Source: a virus | IMG/VR virus record: IMGVR_UViG_3300021387_000118 | Coordinates: 77,168 to 141,167 of that record | Reading direction: 5' to 3' (one strand) | Length of the DNA stretch: 64,000 nt | Shown: piece by piece, positions 1 through 19,009 of the stretch | How positions within the stretch are numbered: position 1 is the stretch's first letter | Layout: every line of letters begins with the position of its first letter | The notes under the pieces: generated by a model | The model's input: the letters and a program-made list of their open reading frames with translations, nothing else | Told to the model about the DNA's origin: nothing | Database searches by the model: none | Program-made: the position numbers and the translations under genes

Positions 1-3000
1 ATTCTAAGACCGGCTGCATCACTCGCAGCACCATTCTTATCCCCATATATTTCGCCCAATGCATATTTTGATTCGGTCACTTCAATCGCTAATTTTTTTA
101 CACTATCAGTTGCATTATTAATGTAACTCGAAACTTCTTCTATATTACCGAATTTTATCATAGATATAATTTGCAACGCTTTTGCAATTTCCTGTGCCTA
201 ATCAAATGAATAACCATATTTGACCGAATTTTCTCTTTGCGATGTAACATATTGATTAATTGCATCTATCTCATTTTGTTTAAGCCCATTTTTCCATTCT
301 CCAGCAGAAGATTTCTATAAAACTGTATTAAACGAATCTTGAATAGACTACTTAGCTTTATCAACAGCATCTGGTATATTAATCCCAAAAGCTTCACAAA
401 TATTTGAAATAATATTCATTAAATGGGACGAATCAATATTTTCAGAAAATAACGCTTTAATCTTGGTTGAAGCATCTTCTATTTTTTCATCGTAATCAAA
501 ACCATCTTCTTCAAATGCTGGAATAATTTGCTAATTAACTCCCTTCCCGAGATTTATTAAGTCAGATTGCATTTTTTGCAATTTTTCCAATAAACCAACA
601 GGACTACTTGTCCCGTAAGTCTTCTATAATGCATCAGCATAATTATTAGCCTTTTCACCACTTAACGAACTGAATTCTTCCATTCTCTATTTCAGCGTAA
701 TAATCTGTTGTAAACGATTAATCACATCTTCTGATAAAATCGGACTTTCACTAGAAGCATTATCTAAATTATTAGCAGAAGAAGAAAGCCGAGTCCATCC
801 TTTTTCTGCTTCATCAAAGGTATACCCAAGCTCCTTTGCTTTAACATTTAAACGTTCAATCGCTTCTTCAAATGGCATACCCTATGTTGTTATAGCAGCT
901 TCCAAGTCTTCAACAGTTGATTTTAACTCTTCTGGGGCAGTAGCAGCACGTAAATCAAAACTAGAACTCACTTCGGCCAAAGATTCTTTTGCTTTCTGAG
1001 CAGCATTTGGGATTTCTACTCCAAATATTTTCAAAACATCCTATAATACATTTGTAGAAATTTCTTTTCCGAAAACATCTTGCCCCCATTTGCTTAGATC
1101 ATAATCATCAGGAATATATGGAATTAAATCTTGCATATAATCTCTTTGATCTCTGTCAACCCCATTGTTTTTAGCATAATTAATTACCATATTTCTCAAT
1201 AATTCATACCGTTCTTTTAATGCTGCATTTGATTTTTCGAGCTACTGCTATTCTTCTTCGTATAATTTGTTGTTATCCAATACAGATTGTGAATCCGTAA
1301 TAACCTCTTGCGCATATGCCTTAAAATCCTTTGTTAATTTTTGCACAACGACATCAAGAGTTTCTAAATACTATGGATCAAGTCCACTATCAAGAGAAAA
1401 TTGTTTTTCTCCATCATTATATTGTGTAACAAGTTCATGATAATTTTGAGCATAAGCTTTAAAATTGTCAATTAATCTTTCTTGATCTGTGCTAGTATAT
1501 TGGATACCTTTATAGTACCCATTATTATTTTTAATTGCAGATGTTATTTTCTTATAAAGATTATAGATTTCCATCATCTTTGTACGAGTATTTTCAATAT
1601 TTTCTTCTGTTGCATGTACGCTATCATATTCTGACAAATCAATTCCTTCAACACTATCACGTACTTGATCTATGTATTGACCACCATACTATTGTGAATA
1701 TTTTGCTGGCTATATCTTTCCATATATTTCTTCCAATTCTTTAACAGCCGATATTAATTCTTCTGTTGATGTAATCGCTTGCTGTGTCCCATCTGATATT
1801 TCTTGACTCATCTACACAGCAGCCTAGCTTGCCTTTTCTTCTGATTCAGCAACTTCATTTACTTTCTCAGAAATAGCTGTGTTCTCCTAAACAGAACTAT
1901 CAACATCCTATTCAAGATGATATGGTTTACTGTTTATATGCTTTTTTATATAATCAAATTCAAGATTAGGATCATACTCAAAGTAATCCTACATATTAAG
2001 ACCTCTTTGTTTCATCACTTCGTTCATTCGATTAAAAGATTCAACAACAGAGTTCGCCATCTCACTATACTTCTTCTAAATAGTATCAGCAATTTCATTG
2101 TAAACACCAACCGCATCAGAAGAATAATTAATCCCATCATCAGTAAATAAATTTTCATTTACATATTTGATTTTGTCAAACAGATCCTATGCTTCTTGTT
2201 CAGTAAGATGATACATATCTTTTAATTCGTCTTTTGTTTTATCCGCATCAAATACGTTCAACATAGATTCATGATCTGTTGCACGAAAAGCGTTCTCTAT
2301 TTTATCTAAATTACTTTCAAAATCATTTATTGATTTGTACAATTCATTATATTGTAACGAAGCTTCTTTGATTTTTTTTGGATCTATACTTTGAAGCATT
2401 TCATCAAAGTTATCAGCGTTTGCTATAATTTCACTGCCATCTCGAAGAACAATTTTTAACGATTGATATTCCTCCTTAAATTCGCTAATTTTTTCTTCAA
2501 GTTCTTCGAGTTTTAATCCTAGTCTTTGAGCCTTATCTTCATACTTGCTAGATTCGTCCTCATCATCAGAATACTGTGCGGCTTCCTCAGCTTCATCAAA
2601 CTCAGCTTCAACTTGTTTATACTATTGTACCGCCTTAACCAATTCTTTTACTTTTTGTAATTTTTCTTTTGGATCTAAAAAAGTATCGTCAATCCAATTT
2701 GCGTTTTGTACTTCTGATAATTCTTTCCATTCACTAGTTAGTTCATCAAAAACAAAACCAAGTTCTTTAGCTCTAGATATTAAATTTTCTAATAAATCCT
2801 CTCTAGGAGAAGTATCAGTAATAATCTAATCAAATATATTACTAAAGGCATTATCATTATCCATTTCTTTTGGTATCTTATCAAACATTGAAATAAATTT
2901 TTTAGTAAATTCCTCTTTGGATATTCCTGAATCGTTAACCTCATCATTGATTTCTTTTACTGCCTATTTTAATTCTTTAGCCGCTTCAGTACCCTTTTCA

Positions 3001-5126
3001 AAAGGTGTTGTATATGAATTTTCGCCAAACTCGTCCCTTAAAAAATCATCAAAATAATCAGGTGCCATATCCTAAGATTTTATTTTTGCATCAGGATTAA
3101 TTTTGCGAATACCTTCTTTTAATATACTTTCAAAATCAAAATTATTTGTTTCTATAAGATAATCTACCAATTCTGCTCCAGCTCTTTCCGTAGATGCGAC
3201 AGATTCTTTTATTGTATTAATTAATCCACTCCACACGTCTCCTGGAGAACCGTCAGCATTAAGTTGTGTACCAATCGCGTTATTCATTTCTTGAATAACA
3301 GAAGATAAATCTTCTCCACCTTTTTTTGACATTATATTAAAACCAAGCATTCGAGAAGCATCTTTATAATCATCTCCAGATTCAGATTTATAATCCGGCA
3401 AGTATTTTATTTTCTTTCCCTTCAAAAATGACCTGATCTATAATGCAACATTGCCATCTTTAGGGTTTGCTTCATTGATAATATTAGCGTCTGTCGCAAT
3501 TAAATCTCTAAGGACTCCAATATTACTAAGTTCTCCGGTTTTTTCTGCATCTTTCATTATTCCTTCAATTTCTTCTCGTAATTGTTTGATAGTATTTTTT
3601 GTTAGATTAAACTGTTCTCCGATTTCTTTGGCTATATCAGTAGCAATATTAGAAAATTTATTACTAGAAAATGTATCCTGGATTTCCTTTATCACATCAG
3701 TTACTTCAACGCCTTCTTTTTCGAGTTGATCAAAGTATTGTTGATATCCTCCTAAAAACCCATCTAAATCTTTTTTATTATTTTTTTTACCTGTAAACCC
3801 GCCATTTTCTAGCAGCCAACTTCTCAATTCGTTGCGTTTATTATTTAGCTATTCTATTTTCTATAGTTTTTCTTTTCTATCTAATAAAGATTTTTCAAAT
3901 TCTGAATATAGAGCATCAATATCTGTTGTATCGTCTTTCAGCTTCTCTTTATATTCATCTAACCAGTCTCTCTAGCCATACTTTTCAAAATCTTCATGAG
4001 ACATAACTCTGTTAATAAAATCATCTGTTCTTTTTTGTATTTTTGCTTGTGCATCTGACTGGGCTTTTTCCATATTAGATATCATTTCATTATACGCAGA
4101 CTAAACCTACGAATCTAACATAGAGATCATGCTATCTATATTTCCCAACAACTAATTATTACTCTAAACTTTCTCGCCAAAAGTTTTGTCAAGTTGTGAT
4201 ACTCCAAGATCAGACATTTCATCTTTAAGTTCTTGCATTTTTTGTTTCGTTGCTTCAAGACCTTTTAATTGATTATCATAATATTCTTTATCCTAACCTA
4301 CGTCTACTCCTTCTCCAAGTTTTGTACCAACATCTCTTAGTAGTTGTGCAGCTTCCGATTTTACTTTTTCTAATCTATTATATATTTCTTCGTTTCTTTT
4401 TGCCAGTTGTTCTAATTCTTTGCCAGAAGCAATATCTGCTGCCACATCTGCCTCTTTTAATTCTTGTCGCTTTTTAGAACGAACTTTTTTTTCTGCAATC
4501 CCATATCTTTTTTCTACTTCTTCATTTGCTTCTGAATATGCACTCCAGTTTGGATTATTTATTTGTTTTTTTAAATATTTTCCCGTATCAACATTTTTTA
4601 CAATGTTTTCACTATCAATATAATCAAATATATCTTTAAATGCAGATTGAATTTCAAACTAAAATTTTTCGGCATATTTACTATACTAAATATAGTTTTT
4701 AACATAATCTTCCGCCTGTTTATCAGTAAGTAAACCGCCTCCAAGCGTTTTATCAGCGGCGGTCTATAATTTAGTATATAAACGTTCAATAATTTTATTC
4801 ATTCCATCTTCAAAATGAACATCATCTGGAGTAATTGTTATCTAACGTTTTTTTGAATTCATTGCTTTCTATATTGATTTATCAACTTCCTAAACATTTG
4901 ATTTGACTGGAATATCAATACCTTTCTTAGCTTCTTTCTGAAGATTTTCAATCTTTTTTTTTGATTTATCTATCTATGAATCGTCTATATTGACAGTTCC
5001 ATTTACTTCAATATCTCCACCTAATCTTGAATTAACATCATTCATAGCATTTTGAATAGCTTTCATTAGATCCTAATCTCCAGCATATCTATTACCGCCG
5101 CTTCCACTAAACTTTTTATCTGCCAT
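1..5126 (-). CDS. tail tape measure protein (5' complete, continues past window start); single frame with many in-frame TAG codons
   Basis: ORF fragments 687..878, 1371..1637, 2187..2399, 3072..3425, 3438..3827 and the ATG at 5126 all share one frame (coordinate = 0 mod 3). Junction 3425/3438 is a single TAG. Coiled-coil-rich with a 'GFNIMS...AIGTQL' region. SD AGGAGGTG lies 7 nt upstream of the ATG. Confidence 0.6.
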
Positions 5127-5879: not shown

Positions 5880-6440
5880 TTATTTAATTTCATTTAGAAT
5901 ATCTTGAATTTTCCCAAAATCCAAGTGTTCTAAAACAGGTGTGAGAACCACACCTATTAATTTTCCAAATCTCTCAACTTGACTAGATATGAATGCATGA
6001 TTTTCATATTCATTTGTCATAACATCATCACAAGCCAATTGAAGAATAGTATGAAATTCACTTAGTTCTCTTTGATCTATATTCTTAACAAGCAAATCAA
6101 AAATGCCGGAAGAGTTAAGTGTATTAAAATCATCTAGCATATTGCCCTTTGCCTTGGATCTTTCAATATCAGTAAATAAATCAATTAGAGTTATACAAGT
6201 CAGCATATATTTTGCCACAGAATCGACATGCAAAACACGCTGTTCTGTATCATTTACAATTTCTTTTTTATAATAACAACTATTAACTATTCTTAAAGCA
6301 GCATCTAATTTTTTCTCATATGGAATATATTCGTCAATAATATGTTCCATCAAAAACGCCGCTTTATCTTCAATACTTTTTTTATTTTTAAACACTGTCA
6401 TAAAAGCTGTTAATTTCATTATTGGTCTCCTTTTATTCAT
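5880..6440 (-). CDS. hypothetical protein
   Basis: 186-aa intact ORF. The terminator lies directly downstream. Confidence 0.5.
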   Translation of the reverse strand: MNKRRPIMKLTAFMTVFKNKKSIEDKAAFLMEHIIDEYIPYEKKLDAALRIVNSCYYKKEIVNDTEQRVLHVDSVAKYMLTCITLIDLFTDIERSKAKGNMLDDFNTLNSSGIFDLLVKNIDQRELSEFHTILQLACDDVMTNEYENHAFISSQVERFGKLIGVVLTPVLEHLDFGKIQDILNEIK

Positions 6441-6529
6441 AAAAAATAGGGTGACCGAGAATATACAGTCACCCTAATTATATAAACAAATTGAAGACGA
6501 TTATCTTGTTTTAATAAATTAAATTATAT

Positions 6530-6961
6530 TTAGTTTTCGATTTCAGTAATAAGTCGTTGAATAGCGTCTTTATCTTTCTGATCAGATGCTTCCATCATTA
6601 AATTATGAAGTTTATTTACCATATGAGCCTTGCTGTCATCATAACTATATCCACGACTTCTCCTTGAATAATTTCCATTACTCATAGAACGGTTACTTCT
6701 ATAGCTATTCCCACCATCTCCATAGTAAACAGGCATTCTTCTCTAAGAATAGCCACCATTACGACCATAACCGTTTGCATAGGAATATTCATCTTCTTGA
6801 ACATCAATACCTTCTTCGAACATCTCAACTGAACCGATATCCTTAAGAATATCAACAAGTTCGCCAAGAACTTTTACAGTATTCATATCAAGCTTTCCCT
6901 ATCGAGAAATTTCATCAATTTCACAATAGACCATATCCTTAATATTATCAAATTCCATCAT
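6530..6961 (-). CDS. late hypothetical protein (144 codons, in-frame TAG)
   Basis: ATG ATG at 6961 with AAGGAGGTG as SD. Same frame as ORF 6530..6736 through a TAG. Confidence 0.45.
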
Positions 6962-10503: not shown

Positions 10504-11508
10504 TTAGGTTATTCCAAACATTTCATTTATTTTATCTTCGGTTTCATCTTTTAAGTATCCAGATGTCGTGGTCAAATCAGAGTGATGGGCAAATGCTTGA
10601 ATTTGATCTAACTCAAATATTTTATTATTACCATCCTCGTCCTTTAAACGGTCATCCCAACCCTTTTTTAATGCCTGAAGCCGTGAATGGCGACAGCTAT
10701 GAGGAAAGATATTAACTTCTTCTCCACGAACTTCTGATAGTATTTTACTAATACTTACAATGCGATCATATAAAGCAGAGCAGTCCACCTCTGATGCGGT
10801 TTCTCCGTGACCTTTTATCCATAAAGAATCAACGTTATCGTCTCCGCGCCACTCAAGATATTGCCTAATAAGCTCTTTAGTATCATTCAAATATATGAGG
10901 GGAAACTGTTTACCACGTTTGCCTCTGACAATATTTGTTTTATTGCCATCAAGTAGTCCCTGTTTCTTTACCTGATATACTTCATTTCTCCGTGCGCCTG
11001 AATCATACATCAACGACCAAAGAACTGCATCTTGGAGTCTGCCACGTTCTATAAGAATATCTCTTGTTTTAATAAATTCATCATATGTAAAGAAAAAATC
11101 ATCATCATTTGTCTTGACTTTTTCATTTGGGATACCCTTTACTTTTTTGCTATAATTAACTTCATAATCATAATCATCATCTTCTTCGCAAAATGTAAGC
11201 ATGGAATTGATAGAAGAGTGAAGCCGATTGCATCTTGCCGGAGACATTCCAGAGTCATCAAACCATATATTTAAACGGCGAAAATCTTTCTTTGTCATTT
11301 CCAAAACAGACTTGTTGTCAAAATCTTCCAGGATCTTAATGAATATAAGCTTAAGATCATGCCTATACGCATTAATAGTATTAGGACTCTTTTTTTGTTG
11401 GCGAAGTTCGGTAAGAAAATCTTCCATTATGGACTTATTTTCTTTATTAACCTGTTCCCATTTTTCATCTGTATATATTTTATTATAAACACCACGGCTA
11501 CGACCCAC
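10504..11508 (-). CDS. tyrosine recombinase / integrase family
   Basis: R..HSCRHS..Y catalytic pattern (ARRNEV, HSCRHSRLQ, SGYLKDE). GTG start with AAAGGAG as SD. No TAG codons. Confidence 0.7.
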   Translation of the reverse strand: MGRSRGVYNKIYTDEKWEQVNKENKSIMEDFLTELRQQKKSPNTINAYRHDLKLIFIKILEDFDNKSVLEMTKKDFRRLNIWFDDSGMSPARCNRLHSSINSMLTFCEEDDDYDYEVNYSKKVKGIPNEKVKTNDDDFFFTYDEFIKTRDILIERGRLQDAVLWSLMYDSGARRNEVYQVKKQGLLDGNKTNIVRGKRGKQFPLIYLNDTKELIRQYLEWRGDDNVDSLWIKGHGETASEVDCSALYDRIVSISKILSEVRGEEVNIFPHSCRHSRLQALKKGWDDRLKDEDGNNKIFELDQIQAFAHHSDLTTTSGYLKDETEDKINEMFGIT

Positions 11509-12091: not shown

Positions 12092-12355
12092 TTAATCACC
12101 TCCAATGATATTATGATCACGCTCACACCACAAATTATATGCTTCTTTACTTTCTTCTTTAGAAAAACAGAAGAGGACCATCTTTTTCCCTGGTCTCTTC
12201 CTATCATCAGTAAGCATTATATCAAGTGGCATAATACCACACTCGTTCATATAAAAATCAACCTATGATAAGTTAACAATATGTAATACGTCTTTGCTAA
12301 AATAATTATATTTTCTTCCCGTTACTGGACTTCTTTTCCAAAATTCTGTTCCCAT
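12092..12355 (-). CDS. small hypothetical protein (one TAG)
   Basis: ATG at 12355 with AAGGAGAAAACGG as SD. 88 codons, in frame. Confidence 0.4.
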
Positions 12356-12376
12356 CCGTTTTCTCCTTTTCTTCCT

Positions 12377-12438
12377 AAAAATGGTAAAAAATGGGGTCCC
12401 TTGCTTCAAATACGTATATTGAATGCGAGGCTACCCCG
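12377..12438 (-). terminator. rho-independent terminator (second copy of the ACCCCATTTTTTACCATTTTT motif)
   Basis: Same motif as at 5826..5874, a hairpin followed by a T-run. Confidence 0.45.
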
Positions 12439-12439
12439 T

Positions 12440-12987
12440 ATAGTTTTTTTATAATCACATTCACAATCTTTTATAGCTCACTGGCTTAGTAATAAGACCA
12501 CCAACTTTGACATTGATAGCCCCAATAATTATTTCTTTCTAGAAGCTTTCGTTCTAGTAGAATTCTTTTCTTTTGAAACTTTAATTTCTTCTGATCCTTC
12601 CGTAGTAGCTAATTGCTCATCGGTAAGGATAGATTCCTCTTTAACATCAACATCTTTCACTTCTTCTGCCTTTTCATCAATATCGAAAATTTCTCTAATC
12701 TCTCTAGCGGCACCAGAAGTATATTTTAATACATCATCAATATTTGGTTTTAATTCACTCATTTTTCTTTGAGCTTCTTTCTTAGAGATTTCATTTCCAC
12801 GATATGCATGCCAAAGATCACTTAACTCCAAACATTTTCTATCATGATATAAAAAACGCCACATCTCATCTGGTTTACTTTCTTTACAGTGAGGACAGAA
12901 AGAATAATGAGTTCCGCACATTAAACAAATTCGTTCGTTTCTCATGTTGACCTCCTTATAGTTTAGTTTGTCTATTTTAAATAGCAA
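12440..12987 (-). CDS. zinc-ribbon protein encoded downstream of the intron-associated HNH gene
   Basis: CLMCGTHYSFCPHCKES motif. The annotated stop at 12529 is a TAG, and the frame continues to a TGA near 12440. Confidence 0.4.
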
Positions 12988-13912
12988 TTAAGCTATAATT
13001 ATTTTCAAGTTTACATTTTCTAATTGTATCAAATATCCATGGTGGATCTATTTCGAAAGATATGTCTCCAGGATGAAGAATATTGCCAGACAAATATGAA
13101 TCTATACTAAATGGTATATCTATACCTAAAGATTTTCTTTTACTATTAATATATTCTTCTAACTGTTCTGGAGTGTTATTATGTGTTCCATAAAGATTAT
13201 GAAAAGAGCCAATACATTTTATGTGATGGCAATTAGAACATAATAGTATTCCATTTAATATATCATATTTAATATCTTCATGCTCCGCAAAGTTATTAAT
13301 ATGATGGGCGTTCTTTTCGATATTTGAATATTCTCCACAGCATTGACAAGTATACCAATCCTTAGCATAAATAGCATCTCTCCATTTATTATAATTATCA
13401 GACATACGATCCGATATTAACTTTGGAGTAATTCCACCTTTCCAGTTAGAATTATTATTCCCAGATCTATGAACTTTTCTATCTCCGCATGTGACTTGTT
13501 TCCCATCTTTTAGGGACCCAGCAAATACAGAAACTTCGTTTCCACATGAACACAAACATTTCCAATATGTTCCATTTCCGTTATGGTTGTTGGTTGCATC
13601 AAAATCTGGACCAATAACTGTTAATTCTCCATAAACATTACCAGTAATATCTTTCATAATTGGATATTCTTTCATACATTCAACACATCTAAAATTGCGT
13701 TGATCCGCATTTTTATTAGTAATAACATATACAAGTCTTTTAGAACTTTTATGAATATTATTAGGACATTTAAAATACACTGGTTTTGCTGAGGCATATG
13801 TAATATCATTTGGTCCAAATCCAGTCATATCATAATCCCATCTATCTAATAAATCATATCGATTATTATCAATGCACCATTGATAAAAAGTATATTTTTG
13901 TTTTTTAGCCAT
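12977..13912 (-). CDS. HNH homing endonuclease
   Basis: HHINNF...LLCSNCHH HNH motif with multiple Cys/His zinc knuckles. Lies just downstream of group I core R1. Confidence 0.7.
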   Translation of the reverse strand: MAKKQKYTFYQWCIDNNRYDLLDRWDYDMTGFGPNDITYASAKPVYFKCPNNIHKSSKRLVYVITNKNADQRNFRCVECMKEYPIMKDITGNVYGELTVIGPDFDATNNHNGNGTYWKCLCSCGNEVSVFAGSLKDGKQVTCGDRKVHRSGNNNSNWKGGITPKLISDRMSDNYNKWRDAIYAKDWYTCQCCGEYSNIEKNAHHINNFAEHEDIKYDILNGILLCSNCHHIKCIGSFHNLYGTHNNTPEQLEEYINSKRKSLGIDIPFSIDSYLSGNILHPGDISFEIDPPWIFDTIRKCKLENNYSLIAI

Positions 13913-14149
13913 AATTCATTTCTCCTTTAATGAAATCTCCTAAAAATTAGATAAAAGAGAGGGTAGGAGTTCCCTCTCTTATCGATCTGGATCGCGACTT
14001 CCAAATCTATTTATTCTGGATCGTGCCTAATAGAAAGTATCTATCAGGCACGACTATATTATAGTTTAATAAATGATATTTATCAAGCTATAGAAGTTCC
14101 ACTAACCACGAGATCTTCATCTGGATAGTAGATGTAATAGAGGCTAGAC

Positions 14150-14535
14150 GTACCAGCACAATACCAAATGTTCACATGAGGTCGTTAATCTCATGCGGTT
14201 CTCTAATGAACTCCTTATTATTTCTAATAAGAGCAGACTATATCTTTCTCCAAAAATGGAGTTACCCACTTCGATACACTTGTATCTACTTCCTTACGGA
14301 ATAGTCGTTGAGGTTTATCCTATTCGGATCTTACCTGCTGATTACCCATTTATATTAATGTTTAGGATTTAACCATGCATCATCTTATAATTTTTTTCTG
14401 TTTTCACAACATTCACGTTTAGACATGTTTCATTCTTCCGTTGTAGTATTATAAGCTTTAGGGGGTTCCAGCATTTCAAGTAACACGCTGTATATAAATA
14501 CAATATGCACATTACTGTACATACGGACCATTGTG
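14150..14535 (-). ncRNA. group I intron ribozyme core (R1)
   Basis: On the minus strand the R element UCAACGACUAU (plus 14291..14301) precedes the S element AAGAUAUAGUCU (plus 14235..14246), with P7 pairing GACUAU/AUAGUC. Starts at the TAA of the upstream structural ORF. Confidence 0.6.
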
Positions 14536-15126
14536 TTAATCCACGTTAAGATTTCCGCTGAAATCAATTTCCTGAGTCTCTGCATCGAGAGAGATCGTCA
14601 TGGAAGGATCAGCTGCAAATCTCGGAATTACAACATAGCAAGGACGAAGAGAATCCTCACAGGGATCGCCCATTGCACAGAACAGAGTAAGCTTAACAAG
14701 ATCAGAACTTACAGCTGTCGTATTCTGGAGCATAGCACCAGAAGTAACATTTCTTTCCCACTTTACAAGATACTGAGTGGGAGCATTTGTATCACCTTCT
14801 GCCCTGGGAGGAAGAGTGATCTTAGTATTAGAACCAGTACCAGAAATCTTATCCTCAACAACACTAACATCAAGAGCAACATCATTTGCTCCATTGCCGA
14901 ACAAACCGATTACACGAACAGAACCATGGGTGTATTCTGCAATGTTAACTTCCGAACCAGCGGGAGCAACAACAATCTTAGGCATAATGATAGACTGTCC
15001 GCTACCAGCACCAGCATACTGAATAGCATGACCGGACTGAGCATTAATAGCCGCCGGATGAAGCAGTGCGTTCGTAGCGGTAAAGGTACCAGTCTTAGAA
15101 CGATAAGTTGTACGGATAATATTCAA
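14536..15126 (-). CDS. structural protein, probable 5' exon ahead of intron R1
   Basis: 196-aa ORF. The terminal TAA sits at the intron boundary. A stop-rich 230-nt gap separates it from a small upstream ORF. Confidence 0.45.
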   Translation of the reverse strand: MNIIRTTYRSKTGTFTATNALLHPAAINAQSGHAIQYAGAGSGQSIIMPKIVVAPAGSEVNIAEYTHGSVRVIGLFGNGANDVALDVSVVEDKISGTGSNTKITLPPRAEGDTNAPTQYLVKWERNVTSGAMLQNTTAVSSDLVKLTLFCAMGDPCEDSLRPCYVVIPRFAADPSMTISLDAETQEIDFSGNLNVD

Positions 15127-15359
15127 TATGTGTTATCACATAAACTTTTTATTTTATGTTTCTTGTGATTCTTTTTCTCACAAGTTCAGCATATATTTTC
15201 TTCTTGAGGAGGATATACAAGAAGTCGGACACTCGTGGAGATATTATTTCAATCTCTATGCGTTACACTATATGAACAGTTCGGTATTCACAATCACAGT
15301 GTTTACCGATTTTGCCCGATTATCATTTATACATCACTATATAAAGGAGCAATATTAAT

Positions 15360-15510
15360 TACCCTTCTTATCCGTAATATCAGTGGAATCAGCACTGATT
15401 TCGATCTGAGCAGAACTCAGCTAATCAAGAGCGTACTCGATATTGCCGTTCTTCTCAGCTACACCATAAAGAATTTCATCAATATAATGATTACCAAGTT
15501 TAAAAGCCAT
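15360..15510 (-). CDS. small ORF (MAFKLGNHYIDE...), possibly the N-terminal part of the same structural gene
   Basis: ATG at 15510 with AGGAGG as SD. End approximate. Confidence 0.3.
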
Positions 15511-17989: not shown

Positions 17990-18655
17990 CTATGTATAAT
18001 GTGGACAAAATGAACCGTCGCCATCAAAATAGCCAAGGACAAAAAATTTTAATAACTTGTCTGGAACACAAGTTGGAAATTCCAAAATCAAACTTTTATT
18101 TTTTACCACTCCATTTTCAGACAACTTGTCACTAATATGTTTGCTAAATATGCTCAACCTATATTGATTAGAATAATTATAACCAAAATCATGTTTATTG
18201 CTATAATCTATATATTCTAACGGTCTTTCATACTTTAATTCTTCTCGCATACGTTCTAATATATATTTATCTTGTTCTTCTAAAGATATAGTAACGGTTT
18301 GCTTTGGCGTATAATTAGACCCATCAGCATAAAGAAATCCCAATATATAAGCCTTGTTTGGTGTATCAATAACGTCAAAATAATTTTCATCTAATGAATA
18401 TTTTCTTTGCCCATTGCCAACTCTCTTAACACCATATTGATCCAGTACTTTAGCAATAACTTTATGCCCAACATTATATTGTTTACCAATATAAACTGTA
18501 GACTTTCCATTTTTATACATATCCACAATATCTTGTTTTTGTTCGTCTGAAAAATCTTTATATGTAAATATTTTACTCATATTATTCCTCCTAAAAATAA
18601 TTTGATATATAAAAACAGTAATCTTTGTATTAGGAGTACAAAGAAAGGAGGCCAA
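17990..18655 (-). CDS. LAGLIDADG homing endonuclease (double motif)
   Basis: Two motifs: LGFLYADGS and LGYFDGDGS. An N-terminal HTH. Immediately downstream of intron core R2. Confidence 0.75.
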   Translation of the reverse strand: MASFLCTPNTKITVFIYQIIFRRNNMSKIFTYKDFSDEQKQDIVDMYKNGKSTVYIGKQYNVGHKVIAKVLDQYGVKRVGNGQRKYSLDENYFDVIDTPNKAYILGFLYADGSNYTPKQTVTISLEEQDKYILERMREELKYERPLEYIDYSNKHDFGYNYSNQYRLSIFSKHISDKLSENGVVKNKSLILEFPTCVPDKLLKFFVLGYFDGDGSFCPHYT

Positions 18656-18661
18656 TCCCTG

Positions 18662-19009
18662 TCCTGTTTTTTACATTTTAATAGTTATTCTTTCTTATAT
18701 TTTCATACAAGAGCAGATCATATCAATACCATATCTTACGACTTAGGTAGTTCCCGTTACCTCACTTGAGGACATGATCGTTGAACTTTACCCTATTCGG
18801 GTCTTAGCTGCGAATTATCCAATCCAATAATTTTTTGACATTCACGCATAGTTATATTTCATACTTACGTTGTAGTATATTGGCTCTAAGGAACTCCTCG
18901 CAATTAGAGAACTTTCGACATTAACTTTCATTAATGAAGCGCACAAATTTTACGAATTCTGGCTTCTTAGTACAGCTGGACACTAATATTTACGTCCGTT
19001 AAAAATCCA
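18662..19009 (-). ncRNA. group I intron ribozyme core (R2)
   Basis: R element CAACGAUCAUG (plus 18772..18786) and S element GAUAUGAUCUGCUC (plus 18715..18724). P7 is GAUCAU/AUGAUC, covarying relative to R1. Shares 5' motifs with R1 and R3. Confidence 0.55.

Follow-up and report, generated by a model that had tools for sequence, protein, structure and literature searches.

The stretch of DNA examined here (the window) comprises 64,000 nt of a virus, positions 77,168 to 141,167 of IMG/VR record IMGVR_UViG_3300021387_000118, and carries on its minus strand a structural gene, probably that of a tail tube, followed by genes for an HNH endonuclease and a Zn-ribbon protein. A first-pass annotation had read this locus as one td-like phage group I intron extending over 12440..14535 behind a structural open reading frame (ORF) of 196 aa, with the HNH and Zn-ribbon ORFs as intron ORFs. 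Judged from its sequence, the gene falls into three exons (15510..15361, 15123..14539 and 14163..14083) split by two ORF-less group I introns, and the HNH (13912..12977) and Zn-ribbon (12945..12529) ORFs both lie beyond the 3′ exon and the tube stop codon (Table 1). The td-like intron interrupting the structural gene was borne out by RF00028, blastn and covariation, with an extent of 14538..14164 only, ending at G14164.

Table 1. Exons, introns, intron helices and neighbouring genes of the tube locus (window coordinates; helices are those of intron 2)
Feature	Coordinates	Strand	Basis or remark
Exon 1, codons 1-50, MAFKLGNHYIDEIL...DKKG	15361..15510	-	translation; blastn; alignment A2
Intron 1 (IVS-A), 237-nt group I, ORF-less	15124..15360	-	absent in L003; covariation (alignment A3)
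Exon 2, codons 51-245	14539..15123	-	blastn; protein homologues
Intron 2 (flagged by the first-pass annotation), 375-nt IA-type group I, ORF-less	14164..14538	-	RF00028; blastn; covariation
P1	14542..14538 with 14529..14525	-	
P10, 6 bp	14535..14530 (C4-U9) with 3′ exon 14162..14157	-	AUUGUG with CACAAU
P2	14524..14517 / 14510..14503	-	
P2.1	14502..14498 / 14493..14489	-	
P3	14484..14478 / 14267..14261	-	
P4	14473..14468 / 14341..14336	-	
P5	14465..14463 / 14347..14345	-	112-nt P5 extension
P6	14335..14333 / 14314..14312 and 14329..14326 / 14320..14317	-	
P7	14308, 14306..14302 / 14240..14235	-	
P7.1	14301..14298 / 14293..14290	-	
P7.2	14286..14282 / 14277..14273	-	
P8	14260..14257 / 14252..14249	-	
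P9, GAAA loop	14233..14225 / 14220..14211	-	
P9.1	14195..14190 / 14180..14175	-	
Terminal G (omega-G)	G14164	-	last intron base
Exon 3, codons 246-271, YCAGTSSLYYIYYPDEDLVVSGTSIA + TGA stop	14083..14163	-	translation; blastn; alignment
Promoter-like site TTGATA-17-TATAAT, 11/12 matches	14058..14086	-	consensus scan; putative
Free-standing HNH endonuclease gene, 311 aa	12977..13912	-	Pfam and PHROG matches
Zn-ribbon gene, 138 aa	12529..12945	-	own ribosome-binding site; synteny

Exons and product of the split gene

The 196-aa ORF has 164 homologues at E ≤ 0.001, of which the full-length ones measure 262-275 aa. Compared with the ORF these carry about 50 additional residues at the N-terminus (MAFKLGNHYIDEILYGVAEKNGNIEYALDQLSSA.IEISA.STDITDKKG) and 26 at the C-terminus (YCAGTSSLYYIYYPDEDLVV.G...), so that the ORF is incomplete at both ends, and translation of the window revealed that both missing pieces are encoded within it in the same frame. 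The search among homologues for an absent C-terminal piece, which the first-pass annotation had proposed, thus yielded that piece and an N-terminal one as well, an outcome in favour of an intron. The 196-aa ORF is a real exon that also lacks 50 N-terminal codons, located upstream of a second intron; it becomes exon 2 after removal of a spurious TTG start, the TTG being the final three bases of the upstream intron. The 3′ exon had been left unresolved and supposed to be very short; short it is, and homologues place it at 14163..14083, directly 3′ of the ribozyme, as 26 codons plus stop.

A metagenomic allele without introns (L003, protein P0010) aligns by blastn with the tube gene over three exon blocks only, matching exon 1 at L003 5976-6158 (84%), exon 2 at 6151-6749 (75%) and exon 3 at 6769-6829, and the gene 3′ of the L003 tube gene aligns with the Zn-ribbon gene of the window. 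The spliced product of 271 aa aligns end to end with 17 full-length homologues and is gap-free at both junctions (alignment A2). Apart from one TAG codon, the exons are intact and 100% in frame, and an identical locus (L004) was assembled independently. The split gene probably encodes the tail tube (Pfam YomU_Tube) of an SPbeta-like phage from rumen or gut, an assignment based on precomputed PF27173 (YomU_Tube) matches, marked weak, on the neighbours YonD_N, YonB and YomW, and on the position of the gene.

The in-frame TAG (15423..15421, minus strand) lies in exon 1 at the position of the invariant Gln30 of the tube protein. Counting the window, seven loci have TAG there (the others being L004, L127, L128, L129, L150 and L154), and CAG stands at this position in L003, L130, L131, L140, L142, L143 and L161. 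The relatives L150, L128 and L127 share the TAG at identities as low as 72-85%, and many of the long minus-strand structural ORFs from about 30079 to 15618 hold 1-10 in-frame TAGs. Because a TAG is shared at an invariant Gln and TAGs are numerous in the structural ORFs, recoding as Gln is favoured over decay, and TAG is probably a Gln codon in this phage. The only tRNAs in the window are tRNA-Asn and tRNA-Pro, with no suppressor among them.

Detection, fold and predicted splicing of the introns

In intron 2 an R element (UCAACGACUAU, 14311..14301) and an S element (AAGAUAUAGUCU, 14246..14235) stand on the minus strand with 54 nt between them and form P7, as had been noticed at first pass. The 5′ splice site falls between U14539 and U14538, and the earlier placement of the start of the core at the TAA closing the 196-aa ORF (14538..14536) is accurate, since this TAA is the first triplet of the intron. 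The proposed Infernal check with RF00028 was carried out on 14150..14550 (401 nt) and gave a match at 14548..14214 covering the full model (positions 1-253), with 53.4 bits (E 5.9e-13) against a gathering score of 50 bits. A scan of the whole 64-kb window with Rfam at gathering thresholds returned a tRNA only and none of the window's three introns, and the group I match was absent from a scan of 12300..14700 (2.4 kb) at E ≤ 10. Both misses look like losses to the speed and bias filters on an A+T-rich target, and the larger Rfam scans, taken alone, would have led to a wrong refutation of the intron. In whole-window Rfam scans, phage group I introns rich in A+T are under-called, and the group I model of Rfam is reported to under-represent phage introns (PMC11878797).

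Nucleotide homology extends over the intron as well: window positions 14551..14168 display 67-74% identity to 306 phage records (blastn), and the similar stretch in Clostridium phage D-1873 is annotated "Group I catalytic intron". The closest relative of the core, in Alicyclobacillus phage KKP_3916 (L002), is 74% identical and reaches 70.2 bits with RF00028. Introns at the same codon of the tube gene (245) are 91% (L150), 86% (L140 and L166) and 76.5% (L168) identical to that of the window.

To build the fold, relatives of the core were gathered with the pattern AATCAGCAGN{15,40}TCAACGACTAT, which returned 120 viral loci, and the window was aligned with 13 full-core relatives (alignment A1). 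RNAalifold recovered P3, P4, P5 and its extension, P6, P7.1, P9 and P9.1 from this alignment, with compensatory changes at 44 of 62 pairs. After addition of the P7 pseudoknot, P7.2 and P8, the full structure of 77 pairs had 95.1% of cells paired, versus 32-46% with the partners slid, and compensatory changes at 52 pairs, values that 0 of 500 shuffles reached. Covariation supports the conserved core P3-P9 with its P3/P7 pseudoknot: in P3 4/6 pairs covary, and P4 and P7 are invariant. P7.1, closed by a GUAA loop, is 100% paired with 3/4 pairs covarying, and P7.2 is present, pairing in 70% of cells of a gappy alignment. P1 is formed by exon GGAU plus U1 with G10-G11-U12-C13-C14, in which U(-1).G11 is the U.G pair of the splice site. 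All five introns at codon 245 (window, L150, L140, L166 and L168) retain P1, P10, the splice-site U and the terminal G, and compensatory changes among them affect P2, P2.1 and P9.1. Two additional helices between P7 and P3′, P7.1 and P7.2, are listed as class features of subgroup IA (PMC3984707); because the intron has both, along with the GAAA loop of P9, its sequence assigns it to the phage IA group, as IA2 or IA3.

Together, the boundaries, fold and homology suggest that the intron is self-splicing. It would fold as a phage-type IA ribozyme and excise itself by the standard two-step reaction initiated by guanosine, in which the exon end GGAU would first pair with the internal guide sequence G10-C14 to place a U.G pair at the 5′ splice site. 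After this step the 3′ exon AUUGUG would pair with C4-U9 to give P10, and G14164 would fill the G-binding site in P7. Ligation of the exons (...AAC GUG GAU/UAU UGU GCU..., the slash marking the junction) would remove the in-frame UAA and restore the 271-aa protein, while unspliced RNA would yield a tube protein without its last 26 residues. The spliced junctions predicted for the two introns are ...CTTAACGTGGAT/TATTGTGCTGGTACG and ...GATAAGAAGGGT/AATATTATCCGTACA.

The upstream intron, IVS-A, has a P1 with a U.G pair at the splice site, a P10 (AAUAUU/AAUAUU) and G15124 as last base. RF00028 gave no match to it at E ≤ 10 in a 321-nt scan, and among phages it matches only large Clostridioides difficile phages, in stretches that lack annotation. 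Copies occur at tube codon 51 (L129, L154, L160 and L161), at tube codon 6 (L161 and L140) and in other genes (L131, phiCD211, pCD1602_4 and Bajarodcaudo virus 2). The family was gathered by manual extraction and an nhmmer profile, a strict regular expression having given 2 copies only, and ten members (alignment A3) were fitted to a hand-built group I model of 52 pairs, comprising P3, P4, P5, P6, P7, P7.1, P8, P9 and P9.1 and including the P3/P7 pseudoknot. In A3 96.9% of cells are paired, versus 32-44% when slid, 29/52 pairs are compensatory, and 0 of 500 shuffles were as good. The guide sequence follows the exon (AAGGGU/GCUCCUU at codon 51, CUUGGU/GCCAAG at codon 6), P10 covaries, and the terminal G is found in 10/10 members. 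By these sequence features IVS-A is a member of a compact (~237 nt) group I intron family missed by RF00028.

Insertion sites are documented in the tube gene family at codons 6, 51, 62, 230, 245, 254 and 257, and truncated gene calls, many of them proteins of 146-175 aa starting MPKIVV, suggest a further site near codon 96. Several genes hold more than one intron: L161 (100..1125) at codons 6, 51 and 62, L150 (1288..2123) at codons 230 and 245, and L166 (368..1165) at codons 245 and 254 with an exon of 27 nt between them.

The third group I intron core of the window, at 18693..18913 on the minus strand (nhmmer family match, E 2.5e-21), has directly 3′ of it a LAGLIDADG-type ORF (17990..18655, minus strand; LGFLYADGS / LGYFDGDGSF), and the pair resembles an intron that encodes its own homing endonuclease, here in a different late gene. 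A small IVS-A-type intron occupies apparently the same exon site in L131. In phiCD211 (L170) a small-family copy lies directly upstream of an annotated Intron_gpI (about 1380..1625 and 1647..1912); the pair sits between "minor tail protein" and "tape measure" ORFs, which suggests tandem introns in one tail gene annotated as two genes.

The HNH gene and its association with the introns

The HNH protein combines a treble-clef zinc-finger N-terminal part with an HNH motif and matches HNH homing-endonuclease families; its matches in PDB are marginal ones to the DotN/IcmJ zinc finger only. Its ORF starts 170 nt past the tube stop codon (14083), the intron having ended at 14164, and thus lies outside the splice sites, so the enzyme is not an intron-encoded homing endonuclease. 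The spacer between the tube and Zn-ribbon genes measures 1,122 nt in the window versus about 57 nt in L003, and the HNH gene belongs to the roughly 1.07 kb inserted there. Ahead of the HNH gene, the promoter-like site and the tube stop codon overlap; a pair of strong hairpins (13950..14050, minus strand) lies between this site and the HNH ribosome-binding site, and the 3′ 105 nt of the HNH leader are kept in other HNH-carrying loci. In nearly all relatives examined downstream, with or without intron or HNH, the Zn-ribbon gene comes after the tube gene, also where both intron and HNH are lacking; it is an ordinary conserved phage gene outside the intron.

A survey anchored on the tube gene found HNH in the tube-Zn spacer at eight distinct loci. 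An intron at codons 245-257 is present in seven of them (the window, listed as WIN, L127, L140, L146, L150, L166 and L169) and absent from the 3′ end in L164, compared with five of 27 loci without HNH (L129, L141, L159, L168 and possibly L134; Fisher's exact p = 8e-4, with the kinship of loci ignored). The HNH proteins form three clades. Every member of clade A (WIN, L150 and L166) has the codon-245 intron and every member of clade C (L127, L146 and L169) the codon-257 intron, and in clade B, whose two members are 98% identical, L140 has the codon-245 intron and L164 none. A second search was anchored on HNH with an alignment as query, a single-sequence query on viral contigs having given N-terminal zinc-finger fragments only. 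It found the order tube-HNH-Zn in 7/7 loci with a full-length relative and an intron of the same family just upstream in 5/7, even at tube identities of 36-41%; no intron is present in the two others, L175 and L179, whose tube genes are the most divergent of this set. In total, 13 related loci have HNH at this position and ten of them an intron in the last ~40 tube codons. The window joins a free-standing endonuclease gene to a gene with an ORF-less intron, and some relatives lack both.

These patterns, read from sequence comparison, fit collaborative homing, in which HNH and intron would be mobilized together. HNH would be a separate free-standing cassette, and the most likely targets of its product are tube alleles with neither HNH nor intron, which it would cut near codons 245-257. 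When such a cut is repaired with the donor genome as template, the nuclease gene would be copied along with the intron close by, and the intron, by splitting the putative HNH target, would protect its carrier. We put at about 0.9 the probability that two ORF-less introns split a probable tube gene and excise themselves, with HNH a separate element that takes part in collaborative homing. A more elaborate combination, in which clade A is tuned to the codon-245 and clade C to the codon-257 intron, alongside a compact Rfam-invisible intron family and a phage reading TAG as Gln, is put forward tentatively, and as a whole we consider it doubtful.

Several observations weigh against collaborative homing beside self-excising introns in a tube gene. 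RF00028 clears its threshold for the flagged intron by just 3.4 bits, with a high composition-bias term, and missed it in the bigger scans. Local Pfam (in a copy that may lack PF27173) and PHROG libraries gave zero matches to the 196-aa ORF and the spliced 271-aa protein, the AlphaFold model of homologue P0006 (pLDDT, the predicted local distance difference test, of 58) is too poor for use in judging tube identity, and the tail-tube assignment is a weak PF27173 match plus neighbours. HNH and intron are correlated among sequences that are themselves related, and common descent alone, given physical linkage within ~300 nt, could bring this about; L164, L175 and L179 have HNH without a 3′-end intron, although the HNH of L164 is 98% identical to that of L140, which adjoins one, and five loci have a 3′-end intron without HNH.

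Because of these exceptions in both directions, plain physical linkage stays a live alternative, according to which the intron splices, HNH is an unrelated selfish insert homing to the tube-Zn spacer, and the co-occurrence comes from linkage and ancestry. The three loci with HNH only and the five with introns only (one of these, L134, possibly so) fit an independent HNH, as does its constant occupation of the same spacer whichever intron site is filled, whereas the presence of an intron within ~300 nt in 10/13 HNH loci versus 5/27 without HNH, the matching of two HNH clades to one intron site each, and the persistence of the pairing at tube identities of 36-41% are harder to reconcile with it; we regard it as possible, though unlikely. 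Far less probable is that the introns have decayed and no longer splice, the tube gene being a pseudogene of a defective phage or the product of mis-assembly, with the TAG at codon 30 as a second lesion: core helices, U.G pair, terminal G and P10 are all intact and covarying, the exons are undamaged apart from this TAG and 100% in frame, the TAG recurs in seven loci and TAGs abound in the structural ORFs of the window as expected from recoding, and the identical locus L004 comes from an independent assembly. The least probable reading, a very remote one that the alignment of homologues refutes, is a single group I intron of about 2.1 kb (12440..14535) with HNH and Zn-ribbon in a 3′ peripheral loop and a short 3′ exon beyond, for although phage introns often carry homing-endonuclease ORFs and an in-frame stretch of 20 codons (~12524..12462) ahead of a terminator-like hairpin is readable as a 3′ exon, homologues end in YCAGTSSLYYIYYPDEDLVVSGTSIA, encoded at 14163..14083 straight after P9.1, relatives with neither intron nor HNH have the Zn-ribbon gene after the tube gene as well, and the 3′ splice site (terminal G and P10) is kept in five same-site introns. 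The product of that candidate exon (WAINVKVGGLITKPVSYKRL) is missing from homologues; for the WAINVKVGGLITKPVSYKRL construct tblastn against phages came back empty, and most protein matches covered just 91%.

Two further elements were noted around these loci. About 1 kb downstream of the tail genes the window has a tyrosine recombinase/integrase-like ORF (10504..11508, minus strand; Phage_integrase and a SAM-like N-terminal domain). In Clostridium phage D-1873 (L001) the annotated group I intron (2949..3265) is followed by a transposase gene (3619..4749; PF01385/PF07282), just downstream of which lies a RAGATH-18 RNA match (4802..4871, 61.7 bits).

Comparison with known systems

The nearest analogue is orf142 of Staphylococcus phage Twort, which has three small IA2 group I introns and was later identified as a tail tube gene (PMC11878797). 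Both loci have several small ORF-less group I introns within one phage gene, that of the window being a probable tail-tube gene, and very short internal exons occur in relatives of the window (27 nt in L166); by blastn, introns of Twort-like Staphylococcus phages are 68-69% identical to the window core. Compared by description, the two differ in tube family (SPbeta YomU-type in the window), phage lineage and insertion sites, and the tube gene of the window, unlike Twort orf142, is flanked by a free-standing HNH gene. The flagged intron also resembles the td intron (IA2) of phage T4, with a stop codon directly within its 5′ end, P7.1 and P7.2 between P7 and P3′, P9 followed by P9.1, and near-consensus R and S elements. 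The td intron, however, carries I-TevI in its P6 loop, whereas that of the window is ORF-less and has a 112-nt P5 extension. The closest relatives of the core, 71-74% identical over ~312 nt, are introns of Alicyclobacillus phage KKP_3916 and of Bastillevirinae, such as that in the portal gene of Bacillus phage vB_BceH_LY2 (PMC11878797); these lie in other genes, and some have transposase or nuclease ORFs. The flagged intron is of a well-known phage type, and the added interest is in its pairing with HNH and in the small intron invisible to Rfam.

In collaborative homing an ORF-less intron and a free-standing endonuclease come together at a single site (PMC3984707; for examples see PMC2790892 and PMC6083498), as in the psbA intron and F-CphI of cyanophage S-PM2 and the nrdA intron and MobE of Aeromonas phage Aeh1 (PMC3984707). 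The window is like both pairs in having relatives without both elements. It differs in that cutting at the intron site has been demonstrated for those endonucleases, whereas the HNH target here is putative, in that F-CphI is Endo VII-like and the window enzyme an HNH protein with treble-clef zinc fingers, and in that three HNH loci of the tube family are without an intron.

For this phage group, the split gene means that the tube gene is routinely mis-called as fragments of 146-196 aa, because it is interrupted by small introns, two or three in number, and by TAG codons in frame. To our knowledge, an ORF-less intron paired with a free-standing endonuclease gene next to it has been described in few cases only. 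If collaborative homing holds, the loci with intron only, HNH only and both would be natural intermediates on the collaborative-homing route to mobile introns, and the variants of this gene family, in which seven or more insertion sites and three HNH clades occur and every combination of presence and absence is represented, could serve to test how mobile introns are assembled.

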